Part shown: positions 8,825 to 56,069 of the stretch, piece after piece | How positions within the stretch are numbered: the first letter of the stretch is position 1 | How the letters are laid out: every line of letters begins with the position of its first letter | Assembly (NCBI GenBank): GCA_964526225.1 | Contig: CAZGLL010000004.1 | Span: forward strand, 3,455-67,454 | Length of the DNA: 64,000 bases | Direction: 5' to 3' | Source: an uncultured Desulfurococcales archaeon | GTDB taxonomy: Archaea; Thermoproteota; Thermoprotei_A; EX4484-217-1 | The notes under the pieces: model-generated | The model's input: the letters and a program-made list of their open reading frames with translations, nothing else | Database searches by the model: none | What the model was told of the DNA's origin: nothing | Translations under genes and position numbers: made by a program

Positions 8825-8843
8825 ATAGTGGAGTTGTATTTTA

Positions 8844-10708: not shown

Positions 10709-10725
10709 GCTACTCCAACCCTATT

Positions 10726-12306: not shown

Positions 12307-12356
12307 TCACGATATATCCTATGACTATCGAAAACTACTAGTTTATTTTATTTTCC

Positions 12357-13142: not shown

Positions 13143-13222
13143 CTAGACACCCTTCAACCGAGAATACATCAGCTAAACTATTTAAGAGGTTTTATAGAAT
13201 TACCCTAAAAGGGCAAGCATCC

Positions 13223-14665: not shown

Positions 14666-14673
14666 ACTATAGT

Positions 14674-15843: not shown

Positions 15844-16486
15844 TATTTTTAGAACCCTTTTAGATCTAGGCTTCTCCGAAGACACTTTCTCAGAGGTAAT
15901 TGCTGTAACAAGGTTTGAAAATATGTGGAACTGTTCCCCACTTGGTGTAAAACTTAATTCAGAGAACAAAACATTGCACTTCTATGTTTATGAAGGAGCA
16001 AGAATACTTAGCTTCCTTAGTAAACGAAACCTATTTACGCTAAATGTTGTTAACGAGTATTCGGCTTTTTTAAATTGCATTTTCAAAAGAAATATTGAAA
16101 ATGAAATACGAAAAATAACCAATACATTGGGATATTTGAGAATAGCTGATGCTTATATTGTATGTGAAAATAGCTTACCTATAAAGGTTAGTAAAGATAA
16201 GTACTTGGTCAATGCGTTTGCTAAAGAAATAGTTATTCTTAGAAACAAGCCTAGAGCATTTAATAGGGTATTGCCAGCAGTAATCGAAGCATTAATATGC
16301 TACACAAAGATTAAACCTTATAGTAAAGTGTATGGTTTCTCATCAGTATTGGAGCTTCTGGAAAGAATAAGGTACTGTAAAGATATAGTGGATCATGCGA
16401 CATCGAATTCTGAAGCTAAAAGAGCGATTGATTTCATTTATGAGGAAGCAGTTAAGCTTGCAAATAACCTAAGGGAGGATAGATAA
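15833..16486 (+). CDS. Hypothetical protein
   Basis: 217 aa. It overlaps the previous gene by 11 nt and ends 3 nt before the CitG-like gene, indicating an operon. No motif was recognised. Confidence 0.35.
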   Translation: MKNDIFRTLLDLGFSEDTFSEVIAVTRFENMWNCSPLGVKLNSENKTLHFYVYEGARILSFLSKRNLFTLNVVNEYSAFLNCIFKRNIENEIRKITNTLGYLRIADAYIVCENSLPIKVSKDKYLVNAFAKEIVILRNKPRAFNRVLPAVIEALICYTKIKPYSKVYGFSSVLELLERIRYCKDIVDHATSNSEAKRAIDFIYEEAVKLANNLREDR

Positions 16487-16489
16487 TAC

Positions 16490-17437: not shown

Positions 17438-17454
17438 GGTGGGGTTTAGATTAA

Positions 17455-35403: not shown

Positions 35404-36126
35404 TTAGTATAGGAATGTTTTTTCGAAATTTCTCAAAATAACATTTCTTACGGTTTCTTCATTAACTCCTTTAGCTTGGGCTATGTAGCTCACGGTATCT
35501 TTTACCATTAGGGGATTTAGCTTTAACCCTCTATATTCATACGGACCATCGCTTTCCGTAACCATAAACTCCAAATCTAAATATTCAATTACTTTCCTAT
35601 GTTTTTCCTGAATACGATATGCGGGATTTATTGAGATAAAGTATCCTGAAGACACTATTTCATCTATTAAGTCTAAAGGTCCAGTGTACCAGTGGAACAC
35701 GGCTTTCTCAATATCGTATTTTAGCAGTAATTCGTAAACTTCCCTCCATGTATTAACCGAATGAATGTTCATTGCTAATCCATATTCTTTAGCTAAGCTC
35801 AGAAACTCCGCAAAGAACATTCTTTGCTTATCTATTGTTTCAGGTGTAAATTTTCTATCCAGCCCTACTTCTCCTAAGCACCTTACACCATGGTTCACTA
35901 TGAGTTGTTCTATTGCGGAAATTTCAGTTAACGATGCTGTACCTACTTCCCAAGGATGTATGCCAATGCATGGAACGACACCCTTATACTTCTTGGAGAA
36001 CTCAGTAGTCTTCCTTGAGGACTCTACATCATCAGATACCGCAACAATAATAATGTCTTTAATGAATCCCGTAATTTCCTCATCACTGAATTCGTAAAGG
36101 TGACAATGAGAATCAACATATACCAT
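35404..36126 (-). CDS. tatD: TatD-family metal-dependent hydrolase
   Basis: 240 aa with N-terminal VDSHCHL and TatD-type downstream His/Glu/Asp ligands. Confidence 0.85.
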
Positions 36127-36267
36127 GTTATTTCCCTCTGGTTTTGTTTAAAGATTAATTCCGTTATAACAGCATTGCTAAGTTTTAAAATATCTTTGTT
36201 GTTAAAGGTTAATGGACTGTTTAAATGGTTATTTATCGAATTATTTAAATATCGTTTAAGTGCATGT

Positions 36268-37647
36268 ATGCGGTTAGGTGAAAATTTTGCGCCAATGGGC
36301 TTAAATGAAATAAAATCTCTCTTAAAACCCGAACTTATACCTGAAAAATGGTATAATATTCTCCCAGATTTACCGGAGCAACCACCGCCACCTTTGGATC
36401 CGCAAACACTAAAACCTATTAATCCGGCTAAACTTGAGCGTCTTTTCGCGAAGGAACTTGTTAAGCAAGAGATTTCCCAAGAAACCTATGTTAAAATACC
36501 TGAAGAAGTTAGGGTAGTATATGCTGAAATAGGTAGACCAACACCTCTAATAAGAGCCAGAAGGCTTGAAGAGGCACTGAATACACCAGCGAAAATATTT
36601 TTCAAGTATGAAGGGGTTACGCCAACAGGATCTCACAAGGTAAATACAGCATTAGCCCAAGTGTATTACAATAAACTTGAGGGGACAGAGAGAGTCATTA
36701 CTGAAACAGGAGCTGGACAATGGGGTAGCGCGTTATCGCTTGCTGGGGCTGTTTTCGAGGTTAAGGTAAGAGTTTATATGGTACGTAGTAGTTACGATCA
36801 AAAACCATACCGTAGAATACTAATGGAAATTTATGGAGCAGAAGTCTTTCCTAGTCCAAGTACGAATACTGAGGTTGGAAGGAGGATTCTTGAGGAAGAT
36901 CCGAAAAATCCCGGTAGCTTAGGGATAGCGATAAGCGAAGCAATAGAGGATGTTCTAAGGGATGAGAAAAGTAGGTATTGCTTAGGTAGCGTACTAAACC
37001 ACGTACTACTTCACCAAACAGTAATAGGTTTAGAAGCTAAATTGCAAATAGAGGAGCTTGGAGAATATCCAGACTACGTTATTGGATGCGTTGGCGGAGG
37101 GAGTAATTTTGCAGGACTTTCTTACCCGTTTATAAGAGATAGGTTAAAAGGTAAGTCTTCAACAGAGTTCATAGCTGTCGAACCAAAAGCATCACCTACA
37201 ATAACGCGTGGAGAATACAGATACGACTACGCCGATACAGGAGAGTTAACACCCTTACTTAAAATGCATACTGTAGGGCATAGATACAGGGTCCCTCCGA
37301 TACATGCCGGAGGACTAAGATATCATGGTGTAGCACCAACACTAAGCATCTTAGTGAATCATGGAATAGTAAAGCCCATAGCATATTATCAAAGAGAAGT
37401 TTTCGAAGCAGCAATTTACTTCGCAAAACATGAGGGAATAGTTCCAGCACCGGAATCAGCACATGCCGTTAAAGCGGCAATAGACTTAGCGAGAGAGTTA
37501 AAGAAGAAAAATGAAAAAGCAACAATTCTATTTAACTTAAGCGGCCATGGACTACTAGATCTTTCAGGATACCAGGAGTTCCTCGAAGGAAAATTGCCAA
37601 ACTACGAACCCGAAAAGATAGACTTATCATACCTACCAAAAATCTAA
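36268..37647 (+). CDS. trpB: Tryptophan synthase beta-subunit-like protein, TrpB2 type (stand-alone)
   Basis: The PLP-lysine motif is [12 protein letters not shown]. The N-terminus is TrpB2-like ([19 protein letters not shown]) and the size is ~455 aa. The ORF-track start at 36100 would add a 56-aa hydrophobic extension overlapping tatD, so the start is placed at ATG 36268 (alternative 36295). Confidence 0.85.
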
Positions 37648-37757: not shown

Positions 37758-37835
37758 TTCTCCCCCACCGGACCGCCTAACCCCATTTAGGAAAAGGTTT
37801 TACTAAGTATTTAAAGCTTTATTTTAATAGTTGCC

Positions 37836-38653
37836 TTGCAATTAAAACATGGTATAGAGATGGTAAAGCAGTTGTCTGTAAAAGATTACGCACTAGGTTA
37901 TTTACTAGGGTTTACACTTGGTGATGGAACTATAACTATCGACTTAAAGAGATATGATTACAGAGTAAGATGGTTTATTAATCCTGTAGGAGAAGATGAC
38001 ATAGCATTGTTTATTAAGTCCTTAATTAAGTTACTAAAAAGGAATGCTAAGGTAAATGACTACATAGAACGGAATTCACATAAGAGAACAATATCTTTTC
38101 GTTCTAAGCACTTGATTATAATAATGCAGGGTCTTAAAACAAAGTTATTAAATGGTATGTTAAGCATAGATTGTTTAAGTACCTCTATGTTGATAGGGTT
38201 CCCCTCTTTATATGTTTTTATATGATTTGTCATCGGTTCATCCTTTCCCCCACGGTCGCTCGGGCTTCACCGGTCATTGCGGGGGCGTTCACCGCCGACC
38301 CCAGGCGACGGCACATCTACACATAACGTTCTCTCAATCAATAATATAAATATAACGCAACTAAAAAACATATACGATCATATAAAAAGTGCTACGGCAT
38401 ACTATGTGGTCTAATTGATTCTGATGGCAATATCGAACTCATGTACTATTATGAACCTTTAATCAGAATCACTACTACTAATAAAAGGCTATTTGTCCTT
38501 GTTAAGAACATAGTTAATAAACTCAAGATTGAGTATTTTTCATCTATGAACAAGAGAAGGTTTCTTATATTCATAAAACTTAGAAAGCTACCTTATATTA
38601 TGCCTTGCGTCAAGGTCTTAAGATTTATTCTAAATAATAGGAACGGCATATAA
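37836..38653 (+). pseudogene. Disrupted double-motif LAGLIDADG homing-endonuclease gene inside the tRNA-Gln intron, antisense to the tRNA
   Basis: Motif 1 is [16 protein letters not shown] in ORF 37836..38225 (frame 0). Motif 2 is LCGLIDSDGNIE in an open frame from 38345 to 38653 (frame +2). The two halves are separated by stop codons and a 2-nt frame shift spanning a GC-rich ~120-nt segment. A TATA-like ctttatttta lies ~20 nt upstream of 37836. Confidence 0.7.
38226..38344. other. GC-rich hairpin-forming insertion separating the two halves of the LAGLIDADG ORF
   Basis: The segment is locally ~65% GC in an AT-rich context. It has imperfect inverted arms (cggtcgctcggg ... cccaggcgacgg) and a TTCACCG direct repeat. 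No reading frame is maintained across it. Confidence 0.45.
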
Positions 38654-38716
38654 AACATTTACTTAATGGTAAAGTTGCAGAAGAAAAAGAGGAGGGGTTA
38701 GGCGGTCCGGCGCGGG

Positions 38717-42655: not shown

Positions 42656-43147
42656 ATGAAGCTAACAGTAGCTTCTGCTCATCTACCAACAGCACCTAAG
42701 GTTCAAAGAGTATTAGTACATGATAGTTCTAAATGTACTGCTTGCTGCACCTGTATGATAGCTTGTGCTATGAGGCATTTTGGTATAGCCGATCTTAAAA
42801 AGTCATTTATAAAGATAGTATTTAACGAGAAACTTCAAGCTTTCGAAGCAGTATATTGTCATCACTGCGATAATCCTTTCTGTATGAATATATGTCCTGC
42901 AGATGCTATTTCGAAAGACGAAGTTACAGGTATTGTTAGAATAAATCCGCTTATTTGTGTAGGTTGTGGTTCATGCAACTATGCTTGTCCTTTAGGTGTT
43001 CCAAGGAGAGATCCTCAAATGCATGTTGCTGTAAAGTGTGATTTATGCGAAGGAGATCCGGAATGTGTTAAACAATGTCCTACTCAAGCTTTAAGATATG
43101 TTCCCAGAGAAGAAGCATACTCATTCTTAACTGAGAAATACAGGTGA
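42656..43147 (+). CDS. CooF/HycB-like polyferredoxin (4x[4Fe-4S])
   Basis: 163 aa with four CxxCxxCxxxCP-type motifs (CTACCTCMIAC, CHHCDNPFCMNICP, CVGCGSCNYACP, CDLCEGDPECVKQCP). Confidence 0.8.
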   Translation: MKLTVASAHLPTAPKVQRVLVHDSSKCTACCTCMIACAMRHFGIADLKKSFIKIVFNEKLQAFEAVYCHHCDNPFCMNICPADAISKDEVTGIVRINPLICVGCGSCNYACPLGVPRRDPQMHVAVKCDLCEGDPECVKQCPTQALRYVPREEAYSFLTEKYR

Positions 43148-43153
43148 AACGCT

Positions 43154-44299
43154 ATGTTTTTCGAAGTAGTTGCAACACTTGGAATAATAACTTTAGCTAT
43201 TCCCGCATTCTTAGCTTTAGTAGAGGACGATATTAAAAGAATAATTGCCTATTCAACGGTTAGCCAAATGGGTTACATTGTTTATAGTATAGGCATAGGA
43301 ACAGTTTTAGGCGTTGCCGGCGCTTTATTCCACGTAATAAACCATGCATTATTAAAGTCAATGCTATTCTTAGCGGCTGGAGCTGTGATCTACGCTACCG
43401 GAACAAGAAATATTAGAGAACTTGGCGGCCTAGCATATAAAATGCCAGTTACTGCTACGGCTATTCTGATAGGAGGTCTTTCAGTAGCTGGACTACCTCC
43501 CTTAAACGGTTTCGCAAGTAAGCTCTTAATTTACGAAGCTGGATTTGAAAGAGCATTTCACGACCCAACATTTATAGGTAGGCTTTACCTACTTTACACG
43601 GTAATCGCGATTTTCATCGGCGCAGTAACGCTTCTCTACTTTATGAGGCTCTTCTATTCTGTATTTCTCGGTATGCCCTCTAAACTCGCTGAAAAAGCGA
43701 AGGACCCGCCTGTTGCTATGAAGACATCACTAATATTGTTAATGGTGATTTCTATAATATTTGGAATATTCCCGCAAATTCCTGTAGGTTTCATAGTGAA
43801 CCCTGCTTTAGCATACATGTTTCCGAAGGCTGGTTTACCCTTAAGTATTTCATATTTTGGCTACAGCACTAACGTAGGCTTCTACACAGCAACATTATTA
43901 ACAATAGTTTTACTAGTAACAGCCAGTATATCGTATGCAATATACGTTTCAGGAAAGAAACTATATGAAAAAGTTACCATAACGCCACCTGTTGTAAGAG
44001 AGTTACATGAGTTCAAATACGAGGTATTTACAGGTGGAGAATATGGAGGCGAACTTTTGCCTCTTGAAGAATTGAAGATTACACCTGAAGAGTTCAACTT
44101 TGCTCTTAAGGAATCATTTTCTTCACTATACAGTTTCTCTAAAGAAGGAGGTATTGAAGGGGTTATTTCGTACATGTTCCATGAGTTTCTAAGTAAAGTA
44201 AGAGAATTAGACATTATAAGATATGTTAAAGTTAGCTCATACGTTCTCGTTTACATATTATTCTTCGTAATAATGCTTTTCCTCGCAACAGCTATGTAG
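43154..44299 (+). CDS. Truncated NuoL/M/N-EchA/MbhH-like antiporter-type membrane subunit (H'-like)
   Basis: 381 aa. It begins at the conserved mid-protein KRIIAYSTVSQMGYIV motif of proton-pumping antiporter-like subunits. The N-terminal ~220 aa of the full-length family are absent. Confidence 0.7.
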   Translation: MFFEVVATLGIITLAIPAFLALVEDDIKRIIAYSTVSQMGYIVYSIGIGTVLGVAGALFHVINHALLKSMLFLAAGAVIYATGTRNIRELGGLAYKMPVTATAILIGGLSVAGLPPLNGFASKLLIYEAGFERAFHDPTFIGRLYLLYTVIAIFIGAVTLLYFMRLFYSVFLGMPSKLAEKAKDPPVAMKTSLILLMVISIIFGIFPQIPVGFIVNPALAYMFPKAGLPLSISYFGYSTNVGFYTATLLTIVLLVTASISYAIYVSGKKLYEKVTITPPVVRELHEFKYEVFTGGEYGGELLPLEELKITPEEFNFALKESFSSLYSFSKEGGIEGVISYMFHEFLSKVRELDIIRYVKVSSYVLVYILFFVIMLFLATAM

Positions 44300-44311
44300 G
44301 GTGTAAAGCTT

Positions 44312-44941
44312 ATGGTGCCAAAGGACGTACCTGAAAAATTAGGAGAAATGGTGGTTGAAGTTTATTCGACAGGACCTAAAAGATACATTCTAACGCTTAG
44401 CAGTTACGATAAAATACGTGAGGCTGCGAAAATACTTTTTGATGAAGGCTTCAGAATATCTACAATAACAACTTTAGACCGTGGCTTCTACTTTGAACTA
44501 CTTTACCACTTCGTTAAAAAGAACGTTATTGCATCAATTAAAATACTTGTTCCGAAAGGTGAAAGTAAAGTACCTTCAATAACACCTATCATTCCGGGAG
44601 CTAACTGGTTAGAGAGAGAAGTTAGAGATCTCTTCGGAATAGAGTTTGTAGATCATCCTGAACCTAGAAGGGTTGTTTTACCTCCTGATTGGAAGGATGA
44701 GCCACCGCTTAGAAAACCTGTTGCTCCAGAGTTGCCAGAAACTTACGCTAACTACTTTATGTCGCTAGCAACTAAGGCAGCGCTTGCATCCTTAAGCGGC
44801 TTAGCTAAGAGAAGAAGGAAACAAATGGGATTACCTGAAGTTGTAACGCCAGTTCATGAATCTAAAGATGTAATTGATGAAGTAAAGAAGATTTCGAAGG
44901 AGCTAAAAATTGATAGAAAAGTTCCCATAGGAGGGAAGTGA
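44312..44941 (+). CDS. NuoC/EchD-like hydrogenase subunit
   Basis: 209 aa with the NuoC signature ANWLEREVRDLFGIEFVDHP. Confidence 0.8.
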   Translation: MVPKDVPEKLGEMVVEVYSTGPKRYILTLSSYDKIREAAKILFDEGFRISTITTLDRGFYFELLYHFVKKNVIASIKILVPKGESKVPSITPIIPGANWLEREVRDLFGIEFVDHPEPRRVVLPPDWKDEPPLRKPVAPELPETYANYFMSLATKAALASLSGLAKRRRKQMGLPEVVTPVHESKDVIDEVKKISKELKIDRKVPIGGK

Positions 44942-45837
44942 CCGATATGGCGCTAAAATACATATTCTATCCGGGATGCTTCATACCCGCAATGCTACCA
45001 CATGTAGAATACAGTATTAGATACGTCTTAAACAAATTAAATGTTGAACTACAGGAAATACCCGATCTTTCATGTTGTCCACCTAAAATTACTAGTGTAG
45101 GAGACTTTAAAGCATGGCTAACTATTTCGGCTAGAAACCTTGCATTAGCGAGTAAACATGGGTTAGACTTACTTACTCCATGTAATGGATGTTTCGAATC
45201 ATATTTTGAAGCCAAACACTTCATAGAACATAGACCGGACTTAGCGAAAGACCCATTAGACATCTTGAAGAAGCTAGGTTTACCAACAAAAATAGAAAGC
45301 AACGTTAAACACTTCGTAGAAGTAGTGTATAAGGATGTTGGACTGAATAGGTTGTCCGAAGAAATAGTTAAACCACTTAAGGGGCTTAGAGTCGCTGTAC
45401 ATTATGGATGCCACCTTTTCGTAACATCACCTGGAGGAGATATTTGGGAAAAACCGAGAATGATGGATGAAATCCTAAGGACTCTCGGAGCTGAGATAGT
45501 TAGAGACGGTTTAGAGAGAATATGCTGCGGCTTCGTTATGTCAACGATCGATGATACGAAAGCTGTTCTCGAAAGATCCGAAATTAGGTTAAGAAGCGTT
45601 AAGTCATTAGATGTAGATTGTCTTGTAACTCCATGTCCACAATGCCTTATAAGATTTGAGTACAGTCAAATAAAGCTTAGGTCGTTGAAGAATGTAAGAT
45701 ACGATTTGCCGGTGGTTCATTTAGCGGAACTTATAGCGATAGCTTTCGGACTTGACCCATTAAAGATGAAATTTGATAGACTACATAGATCCCCTGTTAA
45801 ACCTGTTTTCGAAAAGCTAGTGAAGGAGGGAGGATAG
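44938..45837 (+). CDS. HdrB/GlcF-like protein with two CCG cysteine-rich domains
   Basis: 299 aa with two Cys-x(n)-CC-x(n)-CxxC modules (PGC...SCCPPK...CNGC and YGCHLF...ICCGF...CPQC). It overlaps the neighbouring hydrogenase subunit genes on both sides by 4 nt. Confidence 0.6.
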   Translation: MTDMALKYIFYPGCFIPAMLPHVEYSIRYVLNKLNVELQEIPDLSCCPPKITSVGDFKAWLTISARNLALASKHGLDLLTPCNGCFESYFEAKHFIEHRPDLAKDPLDILKKLGLPTKIESNVKHFVEVVYKDVGLNRLSEEIVKPLKGLRVAVHYGCHLFVTSPGGDIWEKPRMMDEILRTLGAEIVRDGLERICCGFVMSTIDDTKAVLERSEIRLRSVKSLDVDCLVTPCPQCLIRFEYSQIKLRSLKNVRYDLPVVHLAELIAIAFGLDPLKMKFDRLHRSPVKPVFEKLVKEGG

Positions 45838-45839
45838 TT

Positions 45840-47012
45840 TTGGAGAAAGTTGAAGGTAAAATATGTTCCATACCTATAGGGCCATACCATCCAGCTTTGG
45901 AGGAAATAGCTTTCTACAAGGTTTATGTTGAAGGAGAGAGAATAGTTGATGCTCTTATTAAACCTGGTTTTAACCATAGGGGTATTGAGAAATTAGCTAT
46001 GCAGAGAAGTTACCGTAGAAATGTTCAGCTTTTCGAAAGAGTATGTGGAATATGTTCTGACGCTCATACAACAGCTTACTGTGTTGCAGTTGAGAATTGC
46101 TTAAAGATAAATGTACCTAAGAGAGCACAGTATATTAGAGTAATAGAGCATGAAGCAAATAGAATCCATAGCCACCTATTATGGTTTGGTATTGCAATGC
46201 ATATTATAGGTTTCGACACATTATTCATGCACTCATGGGCTATTAGAGAAGCAATAATGGATGTTGTAGAAACTCTCACCGGGAATAGAGTAAACTATTC
46301 AGTAAACACTATTGGAGGCGTTAGAAGAGACATTACACCTGAGCTAGCAAAATATGTTGAAGAGAAGCTTAAAATCGTCGAGAAAGGAACACTTTACTTA
46401 ATGAAAGCTGTTAAAGAAGACAAAACAATAAAGGCTAGAACATCTGAAGTAGGTATTTTAACGAAGGAGGAAGCAAGGAAATATTGCGTAGTAGGTCCTA
46501 CAGCTAGAGCATCAGGAATAGATGAAGATATTAGGAAAGACGACCCATATATTAACTTTGAAGATTTCGAATTCGAAGTTTGCGTAGAGGACGCATGCGA
46601 CGTATACGGGAGAATTATGGTTAGGCTAAGAGAAACATTAGAATCTATTAAGATAGTAAGGCAGGCCCTTAAGAACCTACCTGAAGGCAAATTAATAGCT
46701 GATTTACCGTATCCTTTCCCGAGTGAAGACGTTGGAAGAGTTGAAGCCCCTAGAGGAGAACTAATATATTATGTTAAATCGAATTATACGAACATCCCGG
46801 AAAGAGTTAAAGTGAGAACACCTACTTTCGTTAACCTCCCAGCGGTTAAGCCTATGCTCATCGGAAATAAGCTTGCAGATGCACCACAAATACTTGCAAG
46901 TATTGACCCGTGTTTATCATGTAATGACAGGCTTGTTATCGTAGATTTGAGAAGTGGTCGTGAAAAAACAGTTCTTCTACAAGACTTCATTAGAGGGAGG
47001 GTGAAACTGTAA
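45840..47012 (+). CDS. Group-4 [NiFe]-hydrogenase large subunit (NuoD/EchE-like)
   Basis: 390 aa with the L1 motif RVCGICSDAH and the L2 motif DPCLSCNDR. A ~30-aa C-terminal extension follows L2. Confidence 0.88.
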   Translation: MEKVEGKICSIPIGPYHPALEEIAFYKVYVEGERIVDALIKPGFNHRGIEKLAMQRSYRRNVQLFERVCGICSDAHTTAYCVAVENCLKINVPKRAQYIRVIEHEANRIHSHLLWFGIAMHIIGFDTLFMHSWAIREAIMDVVETLTGNRVNYSVNTIGGVRRDITPELAKYVEEKLKIVEKGTLYLMKAVKEDKTIKARTSEVGILTKEEARKYCVVGPTARASGIDEDIRKDDPYINFEDFEFEVCVEDACDVYGRIMVRLRETLESIKIVRQALKNLPEGKLIADLPYPFPSEDVGRVEAPRGELIYYVKSNYTNIPERVKVRTPTFVNLPAVKPMLIGNKLADAPQILASIDPCLSCNDRLVIVDLRSGREKTVLLQDFIRGRVKL

Positions 47013-47959
47013 TGTATATTGTTCCGTTACTTATTGCCTTAGCTGAAATAATAATATATCCGGGATTAATATTTTCAATACTATTTGGAGGAATAATTGT
47101 TTGGTTATATAGAAAAGTTAGAGCTAGACTTCAAGGAAGGAGGGGTCCTCCATGGTATCAGACATATGCTGACGTATTTAAGCTCCTAATTAAGGAAACA
47201 ATAATTCCATTGAGAGCATGGAAGGTTGGGTTCATTGCTGCACCAATGATTTCATTAGCTGCTCTCTTTGTAGCAGTACTTTTACTTCCATTCTTCGGCA
47301 AAGAATCAGCGCTAGGGTTCCTAGGTGATGCAATAGTTTTACTATACTTGCTGACAATACCTACTTTTGCAATAGCATTTGGAGGTATGGCTTCAGGTAG
47401 CCCATATGGTATTGTTGGTTCGGGGAGGGAGACTTCACTACTTGTATGGTATGAGTTGCCACTATGGCTTTCAGCGGCAACAGTTTTCGCTCTTGCAAAC
47501 TCTATTTCCATAAGCGGAATAATTGAAGAACAAGCTCTTCATGGGCCATTCGCCATAAGACTACCTTTAGCTTTCATAGCTTTCCTAATAGCAGCTCAAG
47601 CAAAGTTAGCTAAAAGACCTTTCGATATACCGCATGCTGAAACAGAAATTGTAGCAGGACCCTACACAGAATATTCTGGTTCATTAAGGGCTCTATTCGA
47701 GCTATGCGAAGTGTTTAAGTGGTTAGCGGTTTCAGCTTTAACTGCAACTCTATTTCTAGGATGGCCTGTGATAGGTAATCCTGTAGCGGATGCACTAATA
47801 TTCATAGTTAAAATAGTATTTTTCGCGCTCATATTCGCATTTATTGACATAATTAATCCTAGATTACGTATTGAACAAGCAGGGTGGCCTCTTTGGAAGA
47901 TTGCTGCAGCACTTGCACTAATAGATACTATAAGAGTCTGTATGGGGTTGGTGATTTGA
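47012..47959 (+). CDS. NuoH/EchB-like membrane subunit
   Basis: 315 aa polytopic. The conserved loop is RPFDIPHAETEIVAGPYTEYSG. Confidence 0.88.
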   Translation: MYIVPLLIALAEIIIYPGLIFSILFGGIIVWLYRKVRARLQGRRGPPWYQTYADVFKLLIKETIIPLRAWKVGFIAAPMISLAALFVAVLLLPFFGKESALGFLGDAIVLLYLLTIPTFAIAFGGMASGSPYGIVGSGRETSLLVWYELPLWLSAATVFALANSISISGIIEEQALHGPFAIRLPLAFIAFLIAAQAKLAKRPFDIPHAETEIVAGPYTEYSGSLRALFELCEVFKWLAVSALTATLFLGWPVIGNPVADALIFIVKIVFFALIFAFIDIINPRLRIEQAGWPLWKIAAALALIDTIRVCMGLVI

Positions 47960-47960
47960 A

Positions 47961-48518
47961 ATGAAATCAAGTATAGTTAAGGAAGCTCTAAAGTATTTCG
48001 TAAACCCCGTTACTGAGGCTTTTCCAGCTGCTAAACCATATTTTCCGAAGAAATATCGTGGACCACCAGTTTATGATCAAGATAAATGTATGGGCTGTAC
48101 TGCATGCGCCCATGTTTGCCCCGCCGACGCTATAACAGTGATTGAAAAGGATGGTAAAAGAACTCTTGAGGTATGGTATGGTAAATGCACTTTCTGTGCG
48201 AGATGTGAAGAATCATGCCCTGCAGATGCGATACACTTAATGGAAGAATTTGGTGTCCCATCTGAAGACAAACTTGCTTTCAAATCAACAGTTACCCACG
48301 ACATGGTTAAGTGTAAGTTATGCGGTAAACCATTTATAACTATTAGACATGCTGAATGGATAAAGAAGAACCTACTTGAGAAAATGGGTGATGTTGTAGG
48401 GTCTGAGGAAATAGACTTCTTCCTAACAGTATGTGAAGACTGTAGACATAAAGTAGAGAACATTCCGGAATTTAGAAAACTCCTCATTAGAGCGGCTATT
48501 AAAGGTGGAAAAGTATGA
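47961..48518 (+). CDS. NuoI/EchF-like 2x[4Fe-4S] ferredoxin subunit
   Basis: 185 aa with CMGCTACAHVCP and CTFCARCEESCP. Confidence 0.88.
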   Translation: MKSSIVKEALKYFVNPVTEAFPAAKPYFPKKYRGPPVYDQDKCMGCTACAHVCPADAITVIEKDGKRTLEVWYGKCTFCARCEESCPADAIHLMEEFGVPSEDKLAFKSTVTHDMVKCKLCGKPFITIRHAEWIKKNLLEKMGDVVGSEEIDFFLTVCEDCRHKVENIPEFRKLLIRAAIKGGKV

Positions 48519-48982
48519 GTTCGAAAAAATGTTTCCTATGTTCCCTAGCTAAATGGGCACGTAGAAAATCCGTATGGCTATATCACGCACCAGCGGGAGG
48601 TCTCTGCAACGGCTGCGATATTGAAATAGCTGCTGCAATAACGCCTAGATATGATGTTGAAAGGTTCGGTATACTTTTAGCTCCAAGCCCTCGACATGCC
48701 GACGTAATACTAGTTGCTGGTCAAATGACAAAGCACTCTAAGGAAAGACTTCTAAGGGTGTATCAGCAAGTTCCTGAACCTAAAGCTGTAGTAGCTATAG
48801 GTTCATGCGCTATTTCAGGTAATGTATTTACAACAGAAAACTATCCCGTAGCCGGAACGGTGGATCAAATAATTCCTGTCGACGTTTACGTTCCCGGATG
48901 TCCTCCTAAACCTGAGGCAATAATTCTCGGAGTAGTTAAAGCTATAGAGAAACTAGAGAAAAGAACAGCAGAGCCCACCTAG
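48515..48982 (+). CDS. NuoB/EchC-like [NiFe]-hydrogenase small subunit
   Basis: 155 aa with the proximal-cluster Cys pattern CNGCDIE...GSCAISG...PGCPPKPE. Confidence 0.88.
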   Translation: MSSKKCFLCSLAKWARRKSVWLYHAPAGGLCNGCDIEIAAAITPRYDVERFGILLAPSPRHADVILVAGQMTKHSKERLLRVYQQVPEPKAVVAIGSCAISGNVFTTENYPVAGTVDQIIPVDVYVPGCPPKPEAIILGVVKAIEKLEKRTAEPT

Positions 48983-50315: not shown

Positions 50316-51347
50316 ATGGTTAGGGTTTCAAAAGTAACCCTAGCTCATGGTGCTGGCGGTAGGGAAACATCCGAAATAATAGAGAAGTTTTTCATAAAGA
50401 AATTCAATATTAAAAAAGTTTCTTCAGGATTCGGTTTAGATGAATTAGAAGATTCATCAACAATCCCCCTTCCCGACGGGAACTATTTAGCGGTAACTGT
50501 TGATAGCTATACTGTCAGCCCAATATTCTTCCCTGGAGGGAATATAGGCAAATTAGCTGCAACGGGGACCCTAAACGACCTAGCTGTTATGGGCGCTGAA
50601 CCCATAGCAACAATGGACAGCATAGTTGTTGAAGAAGGATTTGAAATGGAGCTTCTAGAGGAAATAGTGACTTCAATACGTGATGTTCTTGAAAAATACA
50701 ATGTTGCGTTAATAGGCGGAGACTTTAAGGTAATGCCTAAAGGACAGCTTGACAAAATAGTAATAACAATGACAGGTATAGGAATAATACCTAAGAACAG
50801 GTTAATTTCAGACTACAATATCAAACCAGGCGACAAAATAGTAATAACAGGAACTATAGGGGAACATGGAGCAGCAATTTTAGCCGCACAAACAGGAATA
50901 GGTGTTGAAGATTCAAGCCTTTTTAGCGATTGCACTCCAATAATTGAGGCTATGGAAATAGCATTTAAAATAGGAGGTATACGTGCAGCAAAAGATCCTA
51001 CGAGAGGAGGATTAGCTATGGCCCTTAATGAATGGGCTAAAAAATCTAAGCTAACAATCGTTGTTAAAGAGGAAAACATACCGTTAAGAGAAAGCGTTAA
51101 AGCTTACTGCGAAATGCTAGGTGTTGATCCACTTACACTTGCATCTGAAGGCAGGGCGTTAATTGCTGTTTCACCGGAGAAAGCAGAGGAATTAGTGGAT
51201 ACGCTAAGAAGTAAGGGATATAAGGATGCCGCAGTAATAGGTGAAGCTAAGAAGGGTAGAGAAGGATATGTGCTCTTAGAAACGATAACTGGAGGGTTAA
51301 GAATAATCGAAACTCCCATTGGAGAAATAGTTCCAAGAATATGTTAG
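50316..51347 (+). CDS. hypE: Hydrogenase maturation factor HypE
   Basis: 343 aa with an AIR-synthase-like fold, N-terminal TLAHGAGG and a C-terminal PRIC cysteine. Confidence 0.95.
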   Translation: MVRVSKVTLAHGAGGRETSEIIEKFFIKKFNIKKVSSGFGLDELEDSSTIPLPDGNYLAVTVDSYTVSPIFFPGGNIGKLAATGTLNDLAVMGAEPIATMDSIVVEEGFEMELLEEIVTSIRDVLEKYNVALIGGDFKVMPKGQLDKIVITMTGIGIIPKNRLISDYNIKPGDKIVITGTIGEHGAAILAAQTGIGVEDSSLFSDCTPIIEAMEIAFKIGGIRAAKDPTRGGLAMALNEWAKKSKLTIVVKEENIPLRESVKAYCEMLGVDPLTLASEGRALIAVSPEKAEELVDTLRSKGYKDAAVIGEAKKGREGYVLLETITGGLRIIETPIGEIVPRIC

Positions 51348-51763
51348 GGTTAAACATTATGTCTAAAGAAAAAAGACTTTATAGGTCATCAGAAGACGAA
51401 ATAATCTGCGGCTTATGCGGTGGCTTAGGAGAGTACTTTAACATTGACCCGACAATTATAAGAATAGTTTTTGTACTCTTCTTCATAATAAATCCGGTTG
51501 CGGCAGTGCTTTTCTACATTTTAGCTTGCGCCATTATACCCAAGAAACCTACTGAGCAAGCTGGTGAAGCAAGACCTATAACTAAGAAAACAACGCAACG
51601 TGAACAAGGATTAATAATTCTAGGGTTAATGCTGATACTGGTGGGAGTACTTGTTTTCCCGGAAGTAAAGCTTGTTTTGAGAAGTGTTTTGAGAGGATTA
51701 GTTATAGCAATAGGGTTGCTAATGATTCTTCTTGTTCTCTTCAGGAAAAGCTTTAAACCTTAA
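51341..51763 (+). CDS. PspC-domain membrane protein
   Basis: 140 aa with a PspC-domain N-terminus YRSSEDEIICGLCGGLGEYFNIDPTIIRIVFVLF followed by TM helices. It overlaps the hypE stop. Confidence 0.6.
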   Translation: MLGLNIMSKEKRLYRSSEDEIICGLCGGLGEYFNIDPTIIRIVFVLFFIINPVAAVLFYILACAIIPKKPTEQAGEARPITKKTTQREQGLIILGLMLILVGVLVFPEVKLVLRSVLRGLVIAIGLLMILLVLFRKSFKP

Positions 51764-51977
51764 GTGCCTCTAAAACTTCTTTCCAAGCTTCAATAGTTTT
51801 TTCGGCTTCTTCACGACTCAGTTTAGAAATTATTGCTCCAGCATGAACTATAACGTAATCTCCGGGCTTAACATCCGGTACAAGGAGTCTATCAACTTCT
51901 CTTTTAACTCCTCCAAAGTCTACTATTGCAGTCATATCTTTTACTTCAATAACGACACCAGGTATTCCTAAGCACAT
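51753..51977 (-). CDS. hypC: Hydrogenase maturation factor HypC
   Basis: The start is trimmed to the MCLGIPG... Met so that the essential Cys is residue 2 (74 aa). The ORF-track version begins 3 codons upstream. Confidence 0.88.
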   Translation of the reverse strand: MCLGIPGVVIEVKDMTAIVDFGGVKREVDRLLVPDVKPGDYVIVHAGAIISKLSREEAEKTIEAWKEVLEALKV

Positions 51978-52102
51978 TTTCAACACTTCTTCTCAATCCT
52001 TTCTCGAATAAAATATTTAGGTTATCTACGTAGTGCTCTATAGAGCATATGCAACTACCAACTTATATTAGCTTACTTCAGTGTCAGACAAGTGGAGTGC
52101 TT

Positions 52103-54442
52103 ATGGGAGAAGTTGTTGCTTTAAAACTTAGAGTTTCAGGAGTAGTTCAGGGAGTAGGGTTTAGGCCATTCGTATATAGGATAGCAGTTAAAAACGGAAT
52201 TAAAGGGTACGTTAAAAACCTAGGAGGTAGTGAAGTAGAAATTCATGTTGAAGGTTCCTTGTTAAACATATTGAACTTTATAAGAGATCTTACTGTAAAG
52301 AAGCCTCCTCCAGCCGAAATAGAAATGCTCGAGATAGAAGAGTCTAAACCCAAAGTTTTCAAAGAATTCTCTATTTTGAAAAGCGGTAAAAATCCTAAAA
52401 TGTTCTCGATGATACCTCCAGATATAGGCATATGTGATGACTGCTTAAGTGAAATTCTAGATAAAAATTCTAGATGGTACATGTATCCATTTAATAGTTG
52501 TGCTTGGTGCGGCCCAAGATTCTCAATGTTAGAGAGTATACCTTACGATAGAGAAAACACTTCAATGAGAGATTTCCCACTATGCGAAGAGTGCTTAAAT
52601 GAATACAGAGACCCGGGGAACATTAGAAGATTCCATGCGCAGGGAATAAGCTGTCCCAAATGTGGACCAAAGGTTTGGTTAGTTGATAATTCAGGAGAAC
52701 TTGTTGAAACAGAGGATCCTATAAGAACCGCTGCTAAACTCGTAGATGAGGGATACATTGTAGCAATAAAGGGTTTAGGAGGATTTCACATAGCTGCTCT
52801 AGCTACAGATGATGAAGTAGTTCTTACATTACGTGAGAGAAAAAGGAGACCACAGAAACCGTTCGCTCTCATGGCGTTAAATATTGACGTTATTAGGAAA
52901 ATAGCTTATGTACCTAGGGAAGCAGAGGAGCTGCTACTTTCTCCTCAAAAACCAATAGTTCTCTTACCTAAGAAGGAATACACTCCGGTTTCCAAATATG
53001 TAGCTCCAGGACTAAGTACAGTAGGTGTTATGCTACCATATACTGGCTTACACTACATTCTACTAATGAACACTAAAGACAAGTACTTAATAATGACAAG
53101 CGGTAATCCTAAAGGAAAACCTATGTGCATAACTAATAAGTGCGCTCTAAATAGGCTTTCAAAATATGTTGACTACATTCTACTACATAATAGGAGAATA
53201 ATTAACAGAGTTGACGATAGTGTTGTGAGATTAACACTAGGTAAACCCATGTTTCTAAGAAGAAGTAGAGGTTATGCTCCTAAATGGTTCACATTACCTA
53301 TTGAAGCCAAAAACCCCATAGTTGCCTTTGGAGCAGAATTAGCAACTGCAGGAGCCATTTTCATTAAAAACAGGGCTATACTGACCCAATACATAGGCGA
53401 TGTCGACGATTACGAAACATTAGAGTTCATGGATGAAGCGTTGAAGTTCCTATGTAGAACCTATAGAATTAACCTTAGCGAAGCGGTTTACGTTTCCGAT
53501 CTCCACCCATACTATGCTACAACAAGACTTGCTGAAGAATATGCTGACAAGTACAATTCAGTACATTTAAGAGTACAGCATCACCATGCACATATAGTCT
53601 CAGTAATGGCTGAAAACTACATGAAACCTGATGAGGAAGTAGTCGGTATAGCCATTGATGGTGTAGGTTACGGAATAGATGGTAAAATATGGGGTGGAGA
53701 GATCATTATTGCATCATATAGGGGATTCAGAAGGTTTGGACACTTAAAATATCAGCTCATGCCAGGTGGGGATTTAGCTACAAAATACCCTCTAAGAATG
53801 CTTATCGGAATACTTTACTCCATATTTGATGAAGAAGAAATACTTAGATTCCTTAACAAAACAAACTTAATCGATAAATTAAAGTATGGTGCAAGAGAAC
53901 TGAGAGCAATAATGTATCAGTTAAAGTCCAGAACAGCTCCTGAAACGTCAAGTACAGGTAGGTTTTTAGATGCAGTAGCTGCTCTTTTAGGAATATGTTT
54001 TGAAAGGACATATGAAGGAGAACCTGCAATGAAGCTAGAGGCTTATGCTAAGAAGCCTGAAGGAAATGGTGAATTAGAGGCTAAAGTTGTGTATGAGAAA
54101 GGTGAGTACGTTATTGACACTTCAGATTTAATGTTAAAAGTAATAGAGAAATTAGAGGATGGTGTTGAAAGAAAAACATTGGCTTATCAAGCACAGTACG
54201 CATTAGGTAAAGCACTAGGTAAAGTCGCTGTAGAAGCGATAAGAGCGTATGATGTGAAGCCATTAATATTAGTGAGCGGTGGAGCAGCAGTAAATGATAT
54301 AATACTTAAGGCAATAACAAATGTTGCTAAAGAAAATGATGTAGAAGTTTATGTCAATAGAAAAGTTCCTCCCGGAGATGGAGGAATAGCTTTAGGGCAA
54401 GTAGCTATAGCAGCCTATAGTTTTACTTATGAAGAATCTTAG
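52103..54442 (+). CDS. hypF: [NiFe]-hydrogenase maturation carbamoyltransferase HypF
   Basis: It has an acylphosphatase domain (VSGVVQGVGFRPFVYRIA), two Zn-finger pairs (CDDC...CAWCGPRF, CEEC...CPKCGP), a YrdC-like domain and a Kae1-like domain. The start is set at MGEVVALKL (52103). The ORF track begins at 52049. Confidence 0.93.
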   Translation: MGEVVALKLRVSGVVQGVGFRPFVYRIAVKNGIKGYVKNLGGSEVEIHVEGSLLNILNFIRDLTVKKPPPAEIEMLEIEESKPKVFKEFSILKSGKNPKMFSMIPPDIGICDDCLSEILDKNSRWYMYPFNSCAWCGPRFSMLESIPYDRENTSMRDFPLCEECLNEYRDPGNIRRFHAQGISCPKCGPKVWLVDNSGELVETEDPIRTAAKLVDEGYIVAIKGLGGFHIAALATDDEVVLTLRERKRRPQKPFALMALNIDVIRKIAYVPREAEELLLSPQKPIVLLPKKEYTPVSKYVAPGLSTVGVMLPYTGLHYILLMNTKDKYLIMTSGNPKGKPMCITNKCALNRLSKYVDYILLHNRRIINRVDDSVVRLTLGKPMFLRRSRGYAPKWFTLPIEAKNPIVAFGAELATAGAIFIKNRAILTQYIGDVDDYETLEFMDEALKFLCRTYRINLSEAVYVSDLHPYYATTRLAEEYADKYNSVHLRVQHHHAHIVSVMAENYMKPDEEVVGIAIDGVGYGIDGKIWGGEIIIASYRGFRRFGHLKYQLMPGGDLATKYPLRMLIGILYSIFDEEEILRFLNKTNLIDKLKYGARELRAIMYQLKSRTAPETSSTGRFLDAVAALLGICFERTYEGEPAMKLEAYAKKPEGNGELEAKVVYEKGEYVIDTSDLMLKVIEKLEDGVERKTLAYQAQYALGKALGKVAVEAIRAYDVKPLILVSGGAAVNDIILKAITNVAKENDVEVYVNRKVPPGDGGIALGQVAIAAYSFTYEES

Positions 54443-54478: not shown

Positions 54479-54862
54479 TTGGGGTTAGAAACAATGGTCA
54501 CAATAAAGTTTTCTACGAGAGCAGCAAACGATCCCGCATACATTATAACAGTAGGTATTTCAAGACCTCTCAAAGACGCATTTGCCGGGCTAGATAAATC
54601 CAAAATAAACAAGATCGGTAGAAAGCTTACAAAACTACTTTCATACAAGGTAGCTACCGCTTTAATTAAAAACGGTTATGAACTACCATTACCCGAAGAC
54701 TACCTACTCAAAATTAGAGGAGAAGTATCATTTGATGTTAAAGAGGAAGGTGAAGAATTCGCTATCGAAGTTAAAAACGTTAAACTTGTAATAGACATTT
54801 TCAAAAAGGAAAAATCAGTTAAGTATGGGGAATCTGTTGCTGAAGCTGCTGAAGAAGGCTAG
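54479..54862 (+). CDS. Hypothetical protein
   Basis: 127 aa with coding-like composition. No motif was recognised. Confidence 0.3.
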   Translation: MGLETMVTIKFSTRAANDPAYIITVGISRPLKDAFAGLDKSKINKIGRKLTKLLSYKVATALIKNGYELPLPEDYLLKIRGEVSFDVKEEGEEFAIEVKNVKLVIDIFKKEKSVKYGESVAEAAEEG

Positions 54863-54875
54863 GTAGTGAGAGATA

Positions 54876-56069
54876 ATGGTTCTAACTATAGACAACGAGT
54901 TTAGAGTTGTTTTTGATAAGAAATTTTATAATGAAGAACATTCGTTATGGGCTAAATTTGAAGATGGAAGAGTAATGGATGCTTCAGATGCAGCTAAAAG
55001 AGCATCAACTATAAGTGGACAGCTAGTTTCCATAAGACCAGCAGATAAAGAGAAACGTAGATTCTTTTTCTATAAGAAAAACGAGAAGGTAGGTGAACTA
55101 TACTTCGGTACTTCCGAGGAAAGCCTTGCTTACTTAACGTCAACGGACCCTTCACTCTTTCTTGCCTTTCTAGAGAAGATCCTAAAAGCCATCTCAGCTA
55201 GTGGAATGTATCCAGTAGTCTTAGAGTCAATAGGTGAACTTAAGAAACCTAAAGAGTTAACTATTGGCGTACTTAACCACGAATATCTTTCATCAATTAT
55301 GAAAGCTATAAATGGAGAATTTAGGAAGGTAGCTTTCATAGAGAAAATACCTGAAACACTCTTAGAAGAGTTAAGTCGGAAACATAGTAAATATGGTACT
55401 TTAGTTGTAACCTCAGTTAATGGTAAACGTAATGTAGAAAAGCCTACATATGAGCCTCCAGAACATGACATTCCACTTTACCCTGAACTTTGCCCTATAG
55501 GTTTCACAATAGGTTTCACGCCTAATTTAAGTGAATGGCTTACAATACATTATGATCCCGTAGGGGTTTATAGTGTAGGGTACTATGCAATAAATGGCAA
55601 ATACGATTTCGTAAGAAAATGGGAATTGTTCTTTATGGAGAAAAATGACTTAGGAGAATTCAGGCTGACAAAAATTAATGGTGAATTTAAGGTAAAGGAA
55701 TGGATGCATGTTTTAATGAAGGACACTGTAAAGAATGGTGATGAATTAAGAAGTATCGTTGCCAAAAGCTTCAATACAAGAGATGAAAGTGTTCTTGCAA
55801 CATTCTACATTGTTCCAATAAAACGGGTTAAAAAGGAACTTACCGAATGCGAAATTTATGTTTACAGTAAATACTGGCCCTCACCTAAGCTCGTAAGACT
55901 ATACATGAAGACTTGTTTAGGAGAGCCTAACGCTAGTTTATTCTGGATAAAACATGTTAATCTAACACCCTCGATGAAATGGTCTAAGGTATGGATGCAC
56001 TGGGCTAAGCCGACGAAAATATCCATTATTACAGCTTGTGTTCTAAGCATTTTAAAAGAAGCTAGATGA
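54876..56069 (+). CDS. Hypothetical protein
   Basis: 397 aa. No motif was recognised. Confidence 0.4.
   Translation: MVLTIDNEFRVVFDKKFYNEEHSLWAKFEDGRVMDASDAAKRASTISGQLVSIRPADKEKRRFFFYKKNEKVGELYFGTSEESLAYLTSTDPSLFLAFLEKILKAISASGMYPVVLESIGELKKPKELTIGVLNHEYLSSIMKAINGEFRKVAFIEKIPETLLEELSRKHSKYGTLVVTSVNGKRNVEKPTYEPPEHDIPLYPELCPIGFTIGFTPNLSEWLTIHYDPVGVYSVGYYAINGKYDFVRKWELFFMEKNDLGEFRLTKINGEFKVKEWMHVLMKDTVKNGDELRSIVAKSFNTRDESVLATFYIVPIKRVKKELTECEIYVYSKYWPSPKLVRLYMKTCLGEPNASLFWIKHVNLTPSMKWSKVWMHWAKPTKISIITACVLSILKEAR

Follow-up and report, generated by a model that had tools for sequence, protein, structure and literature searches.

The 64,000-nucleotide (nt) stretch of contig CAZGLL010000004.1 analyzed here (hereafter, the window), which comes from an uncultured Desulfurococcales-like archaeon, carries at positions 42656-48982 a cluster of eight genes for a group-4 [NiFe] hydrogenase with an HdrB-type subunit. 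Judged by sequence and gene content, the locus belongs to the described class of HdrB-linked group-4 hydrogenases and is Ehd-like; its composition and order are ordinary for this class, and what appears as new in sequence comparisons is the host lineage and the halving of the antiporter-like subunit. A previous interpretation of the same DNA (the sequence-only reading) had claimed a new variant on the basis of gene order, a claim that we essentially give up because a described subgroup and relatives with the same gene content were found; the half-size antiporter, which that reading mentioned in passing, is the distinctive feature. We favor, with moderate confidence, an interpretation of the encoded complex as a membrane-anchored H2(/ferredoxin):disulfide oxidoreductase of an HdrB-associated ('Ehd-like') branch of group 4.

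Eight co-directional open reading frames (ORFs) on the + strand were confirmed in the ORF listing, and Pfam and NCBIfam searches with the window proteins agree with the earlier identification of a group-4 [NiFe] locus consisting of an Ech-like six-subunit core, a CooF/HycB-like ferredoxin and an HdrB-like protein. The genes, with two segments that are treated separately below (lengths in amino acids, aa), are:

42656-43147, + strand: HycB/CooF-type polyferredoxin, 163 aa; Fer4_11, 5.8e-17; four [4Fe-4S] motifs
43154-44299, + strand: half antiporter-like subunit, 381 aa; Proton_antipo_M, matching from ~position 275 of full-length models
44312-44941, + strand: NuoC/EchD-like subunit, 209 aa; Complex1_30kDa, 1.5e-27, residues 33-136
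44723-44938, + strand: HdrC-derived arm of the NuoC-like subunit, residues ~138-209, assigned by HdrC homology
44938-45837, + strand: HdrB-type subunit, 299 aa; two CCG domains; TIGR03288, 220 bits
45840-47012, + strand: group-4 [NiFe] large subunit, 390 aa; NiFeSe_Hases and Complex1_49kDa
46932-47009, + strand: C-terminal extension of the large subunit, 26 aa, following Arg364
47012-47959, + strand: NuoH/HycD/EchB-like membrane subunit, 315 aa; NADHdh, 8.8e-73
47961-48518, + strand: HycF/NuoI-like 2x[4Fe-4S] subunit, 185 aa; PRK12387, 3.6e-34, residues 7-171
48515-48982, + strand: NuoB/HycG/EchC-like small subunit, 155 aa; Oxidored_q6, 3.9e-33

The common direction of the genes was noted correctly before, but their description as mostly overlapping was overstated: overlaps (of 4, 1 and 4 nt) are found at three of the seven junctions, and the other four are gaps of 1-12 nt. 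The eight genes are packed operon-tight, and the start/stop overlaps suggest translational coupling at the NuoC-HdrB and other junctions. A 113-nt A+T-rich spacer lies ahead of the cluster; it contains a TATA-like ATTATTTAATTA ~35 nt before the first ATG, a candidate promoter. Two of the encoded proteins, the antiporter-like and NuoH-like subunits, are membrane proteins. The lack of an Mrp module, also part of the sequence-only reading, holds: no Mrp-type small membrane subunits are encoded in the cluster, and there is no space for further ORFs because the gaps between genes do not exceed 12 nt. Motif inspection showed complete sets of metal-binding Cys in the polyferredoxin, HdrB, the large subunit and the small subunit, and all eight genes are under purifying selection, with ratios of nonsynonymous to synonymous substitution rates (dN/dS) of 0.04-0.17 in comparison with a 93%-identical relative (0.095 for the neighboring mannosyl-3-phosphoglycerate synthase gene). 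Going by these sequence features, the locus is real, intact and most likely functional.

To place the cluster, we compared it with the genomic contexts of large-subunit homologs and with 79 loci taken from genomes of GTDB species, assigning the genes by BLASTP comparison with the proteins of the window cluster, eight in all. The gene order does differ from those of Ech and Coo, as had been pointed out, but it is nothing out of the ordinary within its own family: CooF-like, (antiporter), NuoC-like, HdrB, large subunit, NuoH, NuoI, NuoB is a succession that recurs in at least five archaeal lineages and matches the order listed for Ehd (PMC9723716). Same-order clusters are present in Thermoprotei metagenome-assembled genomes (MAGs; loci L002/3, L090 and L091), many Bathyarchaeia, Asgardarchaeum abyssi (L008), Hadarchaeales (L031) and a Nezhaarchaeota MAG (L087), and rearranged versions in Hermodarchaeota (L051) and a Bathyarchaeon (L038). 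Outside their own lineage, the window proteins have their nearest relatives in Bathyarchaeia, Asgard and Nezhaarchaeota clusters with this same order. The hdrB gene lies directly upstream of the large-subunit gene, as in 15 related loci, and a CooF/HycB-like gene is found upstream in every HdrB-type cluster examined; where HdrB is missing, the locus is mostly a Nuo/Mbh-like cluster of 11-13 genes that includes two or three full antiporter genes.

In a neighbor-joining tree of concatenated NuoB, NuoD, NuoH and NuoI (949 columns, 64 loci; L031, which has two adjacent clusters, was left out), the loci with an in-cluster HdrB are separated from the rest by one bipartition with 97/100 bootstrap support. 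The window is represented in this tree by its sister L003, with which it pairs at 100/100. When the large subunit alone was used for neighbor joining, the 15 HdrB-adjacent sequences also grouped as one clade, but with a bootstrap value of just 15/100. Reference sequences of Ehd, Ehe and Drh were not part of these trees. The Hadarchaeales locus (L031, 2467-9878) consists of two group-4 hydrogenase clusters side by side, one Nuo-like and lacking HdrB, the other with CooF, a NuoC-like protein with an HdrC-type tail, and HdrB.

Such systems have been described as 'HdrB-interacting [NiFe] hydrogenases' by Kohtz et al. 2022, with Ehd (Methanomethylicia, from Borrel 2019), Ehe (Culexarchaeia), Drh (Methanocellales) and Ehg (Nezhaarchaeia) as members, along with an 'Ehd-like' group of Bathyarchaeia sequences and one Culexarchaeia MAG (PMC9723716). 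According to a 2025 paper, which also mentions that a sister family has Ehd-like complexes, Ehg is expressed by a Methanonezhaarchaeon in culture (PMC12700198). H2:disulfide chemistry has been proposed for Ehd, Ehe, Ehg, Drh and the Ehd-like complexes alike, and these functional statements are inferences from gene content (PMC9723716, PMC12700198). The published Ehd gene list, EhdA, B, C, EhdD/hdrC, EhdE/hdrB, EhdF/[NiFe] hydrogenase, EhdG, H and I (PMC9723716), resembles the window cluster in its succession of an hdrC-annotated gene, hdrB, the [NiFe] large subunit and then three hydrogenase genes, as well as in the membrane anchor and antiporter subunit; the likeness is one of gene order and gene content. 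The window cluster differs from Ehd in the number of genes (eight versus nine), in having only the C-terminal half of the antiporter, and in its host, a Desulfurococcales-like member of the Thermoprotei with no evidence of methanogenesis. Of HdrC, the window cluster contains the C-terminal ~75 aa, fused to NuoC. With Ehe, Ehg and Drh, it shares the combination of HdrB with a membrane-type group-4 hydrogenase and the proposed role as an H2:disulfide oxidoreductase, but the SdhA, CdhA, GcvH, HdrA2B2C2 and FdhF/HdrA/MvhD modules of those systems are absent from the window cluster, and no dehydrogenase partner is encoded in the window. Drh has no antiporter (PMC9723716), which shows that complexes of this class can do without the antiporter module. 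In the HydDB classification, a related Ehe subunit falls in class 4b, and Ehg is near 4g (PMC9723716).

At its start, the HdrB gene overlaps the stop codon of the NuoC gene; at its end, it is separated from the large-subunit start by 2 nt. The encoded protein contains two CCG motifs, C14-X31-C46C47-X34-C82xxC85 and C158-X37-C196C197-X35-C233xxC236, which we assign to the CX31-39CCX35-36CXXC type that binds non-cubane [4Fe-4S] clusters; it aligns over its full length with the solved HdrB chains 9sfi_C, 8rvu_b and 5odc_B (~195-200 bits). Equivalents of E87 and H154, the residues named in PMC13518236, are retained, and the dN/dS of the gene is 0.09. These features point to HdrB as the putative disulfide-reducing site of the complex.

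The NuoC-like subunit, the gene of which precedes hdrB, carries a C-terminal extension. Such extensions are 57-81 aa long in 17/17 loci where HdrB follows NuoC, and 0-22 aa long in the 62 loci that lack HdrB and have the large subunit directly next. All nine of the tails tested, from different lineages, match TIGR03290 (HdrC) at ~76-143 of its 144 positions (E-values of 1e-3 to 7e-7). When a profile of 11 tails was run against the whole PDB, it matched almost exclusively HdrC chains: 8rvu_c (2.6e-13, residues 108-184 of 185), 5odc_C (3e-11), 9sfi_E (1e-10) and 7bkb_C (3e-4); the one non-HdrC match, to a mitoribosomal protein, was insignificant (E=0.86). A single-sequence PDB search with the whole NuoC-like protein did not reveal HdrC, so that the homology surfaced only through the NCBIfam model and the tail profile. 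By homology, the tail is the part of HdrC that follows the two-cluster ferredoxin domain, and it contains no Fe-S motifs. In the HdrABC structure, this segment packs against HdrB. A 2026 structural study shows HdrB and HdrC in contact at the active site (PMC13518236), but the residues that it names are upstream of the retained segment. The occurrence of an HdrC-like tail in every HdrB-containing cluster suggests a docking mode for HdrB, and from this we infer that it is the tail which keeps HdrB attached to the peripheral arm of the hydrogenase.

The antiporter-like subunit is truncated, as the sequence-only reading had it. The stop-to-stop ORF exceeds the called gene by just 2 codons, which shows that the truncation is real, and the protein matches only the C-terminal half of its homologs. 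It aligns from ~264-293 onward with MbhH, MbsH', HycC, MrpA, Nqo12 and 656-865-aa relatives (from position 286 of 510 in MbhH, 264 of 608 in HycC and 269 of 606 in Nqo12) and is colinear with residues ~293-656 of the full-length relatives, ~290 N-terminal residues being absent. No missing N-terminal half was found in the window with three full-length relatives as queries. An AlphaFold (AF2) model of the 381-aa subunit (pLDDT 82.8, pTM 0.75) shows eight transmembrane (TM) helices and an amphipathic stretch preceding the last helix, and Foldseek superposes it on the C-terminal part of HycC and MbsH' (TM-score 0.70 by query, 0.45 by target). According to the model, the protein corresponds to TM9-TM16 and the lateral helix of a NuoL/HycC/MbhH-type subunit and lacks TM1-8. 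In complex I, the TM5 Glu and TM7 Lys belong to the first half-channel, which consists of five helices and lies in the TM1-8 region.

What remains of the subunit is conserved. Among 26 homologs, H60, H64 and K68 of TM11 and K123 of TM12 are invariant or nearly so (H60, K68 and K123 without exception), and the dN/dS of the gene is 0.11. The 380-381-aa version is also present in the relatives L002, L090 and L091, at identities down to 59%. A HMMER search of 1.84 billion cluster representatives yielded one other representative with the half architecture (P0241, 80% identical); the remaining top matches lie inside longer proteins or are contig-end fragments. Two candidates for independent truncations, P0242 (599 aa) and P0268 (412 aa), were rejected, as both start at contig ends. 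By these comparisons, the half antiporter occurs in this Desulfurococcales-like lineage alone.

Four states of the antiporter gene exist in the HdrB clade: ~855 aa (854-865), 656 aa, 381 aa and absent from the cluster. The ~855-aa form is a full subunit with an extra copy of the same half. In the ~855-aa subunits of L004 (712-3276), L010 (4183-6777) and L087 (5899-8463), a full NuoL-like unit is followed by a second TM10-14 half, and residues ~665-855 align with residues 21-218 of the half protein at 33-37% identity; the half unit thus exists also as an add-on domain.

The large subunit has both nickel-binding motifs reported earlier, the L1 motif RVCGICSDAH at residues 67-76 (positions 46038-46067) and the L2 motif DPCLSCNDR at residues 356-364 (positions 46905-46931), and C69, C72, C358, C361 and R364 are invariant in 28 homologs. 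The closest solved large subunits are MbhL (6cfw_L, 282 bits) and HycE (7z0s_E, 275 bits), followed at a distance by MbsL (171 bits). The Arg after the second Cys pair, previously taken for an oddity, is by sequence comparison the group-4 norm: apart from its invariance in the homologs, the solved MbhL chain terminates in ...DPCLSCTDR with Arg as its last residue. The C-terminal tail noted before is present as well, but it comprises 26 rather than ~30 aa and is not peculiar to this protein, being HycE-like and conserved in the family consensus, with D369 nearly invariant in the 28 homologs; the alignment with Escherichia coli HycE extends through the tail to residue 383. HycE is processed by HycI after the equivalent Arg, and the tail is predicted to be a substrate for HycI-type cleavage after Arg364.

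No gene for such a maturation endopeptidase is present in the window, in agreement with the sequence-only reading: a hidden Markov model (HMM) profile built from 47 HycI genes of related loci gave a best E-value of 0.2, and tblastn with bacterial HycI returned nothing. HycI genes adjoin the homologous clusters in L010, L031 (Hadarchaeales) and L087 (Nezhaarchaeota), so that the protease is most likely encoded elsewhere in the genome. In L087, hycI follows the hydrogenase-HdrB cluster.

Three further subunits have motifs for Fe-S clusters. The polyferredoxin has 16 Cys in four CxxCxxCxxxC-type motifs, and polyferredoxin subunits, HycB (7z0s_B) among them, are its top PDB matches; it probably serves as a wire that conducts electrons between ferredoxin/HdrB and the HycF-like subunit. 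The latter carries a C-terminal CxxC...CxxC extension, and its residues 15-173 align with residues 12-170 of HycF (7z0s_F). The NuoB-like subunit exceeds the NuoB-family cut-offs and has C31, C34, C98 and C129 for the proximal [4Fe-4S] cluster.

Among solved systems, the closest match subunit for subunit is the formate hydrogenlyase (FHL) of E. coli (Hyc, group 4a; 7Z0S/7Z0T), in which HycB corresponds to the CooF-like protein, HycC to the half antiporter, HycD to the NuoH-like subunit, HycE to NuoC plus NuoD (with the same type of large-subunit tail), HycF to the NuoI-like subunit including its C-terminal extension, and HycG to the NuoB-like subunit. The window differs from FHL in that it has no formate dehydrogenase, NuoC and NuoD are separate genes with HdrB between them, the HycC homolog lacks TM1-8, and hycI is unlinked. 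With Ech (4e) and Coo (4c), the cluster shares the minimal six-subunit core of two membrane and four peripheral subunits, and with Coo also the CooF polyferredoxin; it differs from both in gene order and in the addition of HdrB with the HdrC-derived tail, and no carbon monoxide dehydrogenase (CODH) is encoded in the window. In comparison with the six genes of echABCDEF, the window cluster has eight, with a polyferredoxin added and an EchA homolog devoid of the N-terminal ~290 aa. To our knowledge, EchE and CooH have no C-terminal extension, unlike the large subunit of the window. The 14-subunit Mbh (4d) of Pyrococcus furiosus (6CFW), which provides the best solved match for both the large subunit and the antiporter (149 bits for the latter), has an Mrp module (MbhA-G), a full-length MbhH and no HdrB. 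With the soluble HdrABC-MvhAGD (5ODC, 8RVU, 9SFI), the window cluster has in common the two CCG motifs of HdrB and ~78 C-terminal residues of HdrC, here fused to NuoC; it differs in having no HdrA, which excludes flavin-based bifurcation, in lacking the HdrC ferredoxin domain and in containing a membrane group-4 rather than a group-3c Mvh hydrogenase. In sum, the L1/L2 CxxC pairs and the NuoB, NuoC, NuoI and NuoH partners that characterize group 4 are all present, and the antiporter only by half; absent are the six-gene composition with full EchA of Ech, the linked CODH or formate dehydrogenase (FDH) of Coo and FHL, and the Mrp module of Mbh and Mbx. Among the scanned ORFs of the window, no CODH, FDH or molybdopterin domain was detected.

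In the H2(/ferredoxin):disulfide oxidoreductase that we favor, an FHL-like peripheral arm would be formed by the [NiFe] large subunit, the NuoB-like subunit with the proximal cluster, the HycF-like two-cluster protein and the HycB/CooF-like four-cluster wire, and HdrB would be held on this arm by the HdrC-derived tail of the NuoC-like subunit. Electrons from H2 at the [NiFe] site, and/or from reduced ferredoxin via the polyferredoxin, would pass along the path NiFe - NuoB - HycF-like - CooF-like - HdrB, where a disulfide would be reduced. The direction from H2 or reduced ferredoxin to disulfide would be thermodynamically downhill, and ion movement through the NuoH-like subunit and through TM9-13 of the half antiporter could be driven by the large redox span. 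The disulfide is probably one other than the heterodisulfide of coenzymes M and B (CoM-S-S-CoB), an unlikely substrate given that the host lineage is not known as methanogenic.

Several points weigh against this interpretation. The functions proposed for the class to which the locus belongs come from gene content, so the direction of the reaction and its substrate are guesses. The large subunit alone does not resolve the HdrB clade, as the bootstrap value given above indicates, and the 220 bits of HdrB are below the 345-bit cut-off of the NCBIfam equivalog model (TIGR03288). In HdrABC, it is the 2x[4Fe-4S] ferredoxin domain of HdrC that feeds HdrB; this domain is missing here, which makes the electron route to HdrB hypothetical, and the relay would have to come from the CooF/HycB-like or the HycF-like subunit. 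Furthermore, the antiporter-like subunit lacks the N-terminal half-channel (TM4-8), and several Bathyarchaeia clusters have no antiporter gene at all, so that ion pumping may be weak or absent. As the antiporter module is evolutionarily labile, the core chemistry may not depend on strong ion pumping.

An alternative that we consider rather unlikely is that the complex is mainly a ferredoxin-oxidizing, H2-evolving hydrogenase of the Ech/FHL kind, serving fermentative redox disposal, with HdrB as an optional side branch acting as an alternative electron sink or in redox sensing. All six Ech-type core subunits and a HycB/CooF-like input wire are indeed present, the nearest solved large subunits, MbhL and HycE, are those of H2-evolving enzymes, and Desulfurococcales-type hosts are fermenters. 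However, HdrB and the HdrC-derived tail are strictly co-inherited with the hydrogenase clade, and purifying selection on them is as strong as on the core subunits; an accessory branch should be lost more often than the antiporter, yet it is the antiporter that varies.

It is also conceivable, but improbable in our estimate, that HdrB acts on the lipoyl disulfide of a GcvH-type carrier and so links H2 to the glycine cleavage/synthase system, in place of the L-protein (dihydrolipoamide dehydrogenase, Lpd). The gene neighborhoods that suggest this are those of the Nezhaarchaeota locus, where gcvH and a dihydrolipoamide-dehydrogenase-like flavoprotein (Pyr_redox_2/Pyr_redox_dim) are encoded co-directionally upstream of the cluster (L087, 1131-5286) in a run that also includes lipoate-protein ligase, OsmC and a radical-SAM gene; of the HdrB-type loci L010, L038 and L034, with gcvH nearby, as it is near no HdrB-less locus; and of Ehe, the cluster of which includes gcvH (PMC9723716). 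The window itself has gcvPA, gcvPB, gcvT and gcvH, and no Lpd-like gene was found in its 64 kb. However, the gcvH of the window is 37 kb away, inside an ordinary gcv operon, for which reason we rate this interpretation low; the closest relatives, L002, L090 and L091, have no gcvH within 8-10 kb, most HdrB-type clusters have no GcvH nearby, and the Lpd gene could be elsewhere in the genome. The more specific proposal of an H2-linked lipoyl-GcvH oxidoreductase that replaces the L-protein in anaerobic hyperthermophiles, with HdrB, docked via the HdrC arm of NuoC, interconverting lipoyl- and dihydrolipoyl-GcvH with H2/H+ and the half antiporter coupling this small redox span to the membrane potential as a minimal single half-channel, strikes us as a long shot. 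If it were true, it would imply a non-methanogenic ancestral role for the whole class of HdrB-interacting hydrogenases, and nature would have supplied a minimal model for studying how half-channels work in the complex-I superfamily.

That the locus is a decaying remnant, with the antiporter truncated by loss of function and the complex unassembled, is very improbable: ~290 N-terminal antiporter residues are missing and no hycI is present in the window, but at least four divergent relatives have all eight ORFs intact with the same 380-381-aa antiporter gene, the truncated gene evolves under constraint with invariant key residues in TM11 and TM12, and intact hyp genes lie adjacent. With intact ORFs, low dN/dS and complete motifs, we rejected the pseudogene interpretation. 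Hardly credible is an Mbx/MBS-like sulfane-sulfur reductase or another NiFe-less relative of complex I, given that, despite the shared complex-I-like subunits and detectable homologs among the MBS subunits (6u8y), all four NiFe-ligating Cys (C69/C72, C358/C361) are present, hypC, hypD, hypE and hypF are adjacent, and the large subunit scores far higher with MbhL and HycE than with MbsL.

HdrB-linked membrane hydrogenases are reportedly discussed mainly as heterodisulfide recyclers of newly found methanogens. The presence of the module in a presumably non-methanogenic, Desulfurococcales-like hyperthermophile, as well as in Bathyarchaeia, Asgard and Hadarchaeales, argues for a disulfide substrate more general than CoM-S-S-CoB. 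The fusion of NuoC with the HdrC-derived arm offers a testable docking hypothesis for an Hdr module grafted on a complex-I-like scaffold, and the series of antiporter forms (~855, 656 and 381 aa, and none) amounts to a natural deletion series with which the contribution of each half-channel could be probed. These points are proposals, and the locus is a lineage-specific variant of a described type.

Immediately downstream of the hydrogenase genes are those for [NiFe] maturation, called from the Pfam annotation of the identical contig L001:

48979-50157, - strand: hypD (Pfam)
50316-51347, + strand: hypE (Pfam)
51341-51763, + strand: PspC-domain gene (Pfam, confirmed by a second Pfam search)
51753-51986, - strand: hypC (Pfam)
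52049-54442, + strand: hypF (Pfam)

The arrangement hypD-hypE-PspC-hypC-hypF is also found in the relatives L002 and L090. The gene for the PspC-domain membrane protein, an unusual passenger for a hyp cluster, is kept between hypE and hypC in this lineage (L002, 15429-15845; L090, 14414-14821). Two genes after hypF (54479-56069; 127 and 397 aa) have no Pfam match; both are conserved in position in L002 (18600-20184), the large subunit of which is 81% identical, and after the pair comes a radical-SAM gene in convergent orientation, the product of which has a zinc-ribbon at its C terminus.

On the other side, directly upstream of the cluster, Pfam and NCBIfam identify a mannosyl-3-phosphoglycerate synthase gene, which fits a marine hyperthermophile. 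The G+C content of the window is ~37%, and Rfam and tRNA scans of its 64 kb found no rRNA, tRNA or Rfam element. Farther upstream, positions 1418-6238 hold a canonical glycine cleavage operon, with gcvPB and gcvPA on the - strand and gcvT and gcvH on the + strand; a gene for dihydrolipoamide dehydrogenase was not detected in the window. A run of genes for pterin-cofactor (folate/methanopterin-like) biosynthesis, interrupted by a TrkH transporter gene, occupies positions 7480-18537 and encodes F420_ligase-like, PTPS, GTP cyclohydrolase (FolE2/MptA type), GHMP kinase and MptE-like proteins, a Pterin_bind protein (dihydropteroate synthase-like) with DUF6513 and DUF4346, and DUF763, DUF447, CitG and DUF711 proteins. 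The ORF for a PALP-type pyridoxal-phosphate enzyme at 36100-37647 is 515 aa long, compared with 451-483 aa in L002, L090 and L091; this is probably due to the start-codon choice of the ORF finder rather than to an extension.

An insertion of ~953 bp at 37758-38710 is absent from the otherwise colinear L090. It is flanked by 23-nt G+C-rich inverted repeats (37762-37784 and 38694-38716; 91% complementary) that are unique to it within the window, with none expected by chance. Neither of the two short ORFs inside the insertion (129 and 70 aa) has a Pfam match. A LAGLIDADG motif spotted by eye in the ORF at 37836-38225 was dropped, as it had no Pfam support. From its sequence, the insertion looks like a miniature inverted-repeat transposable element or a degenerate mobile element.

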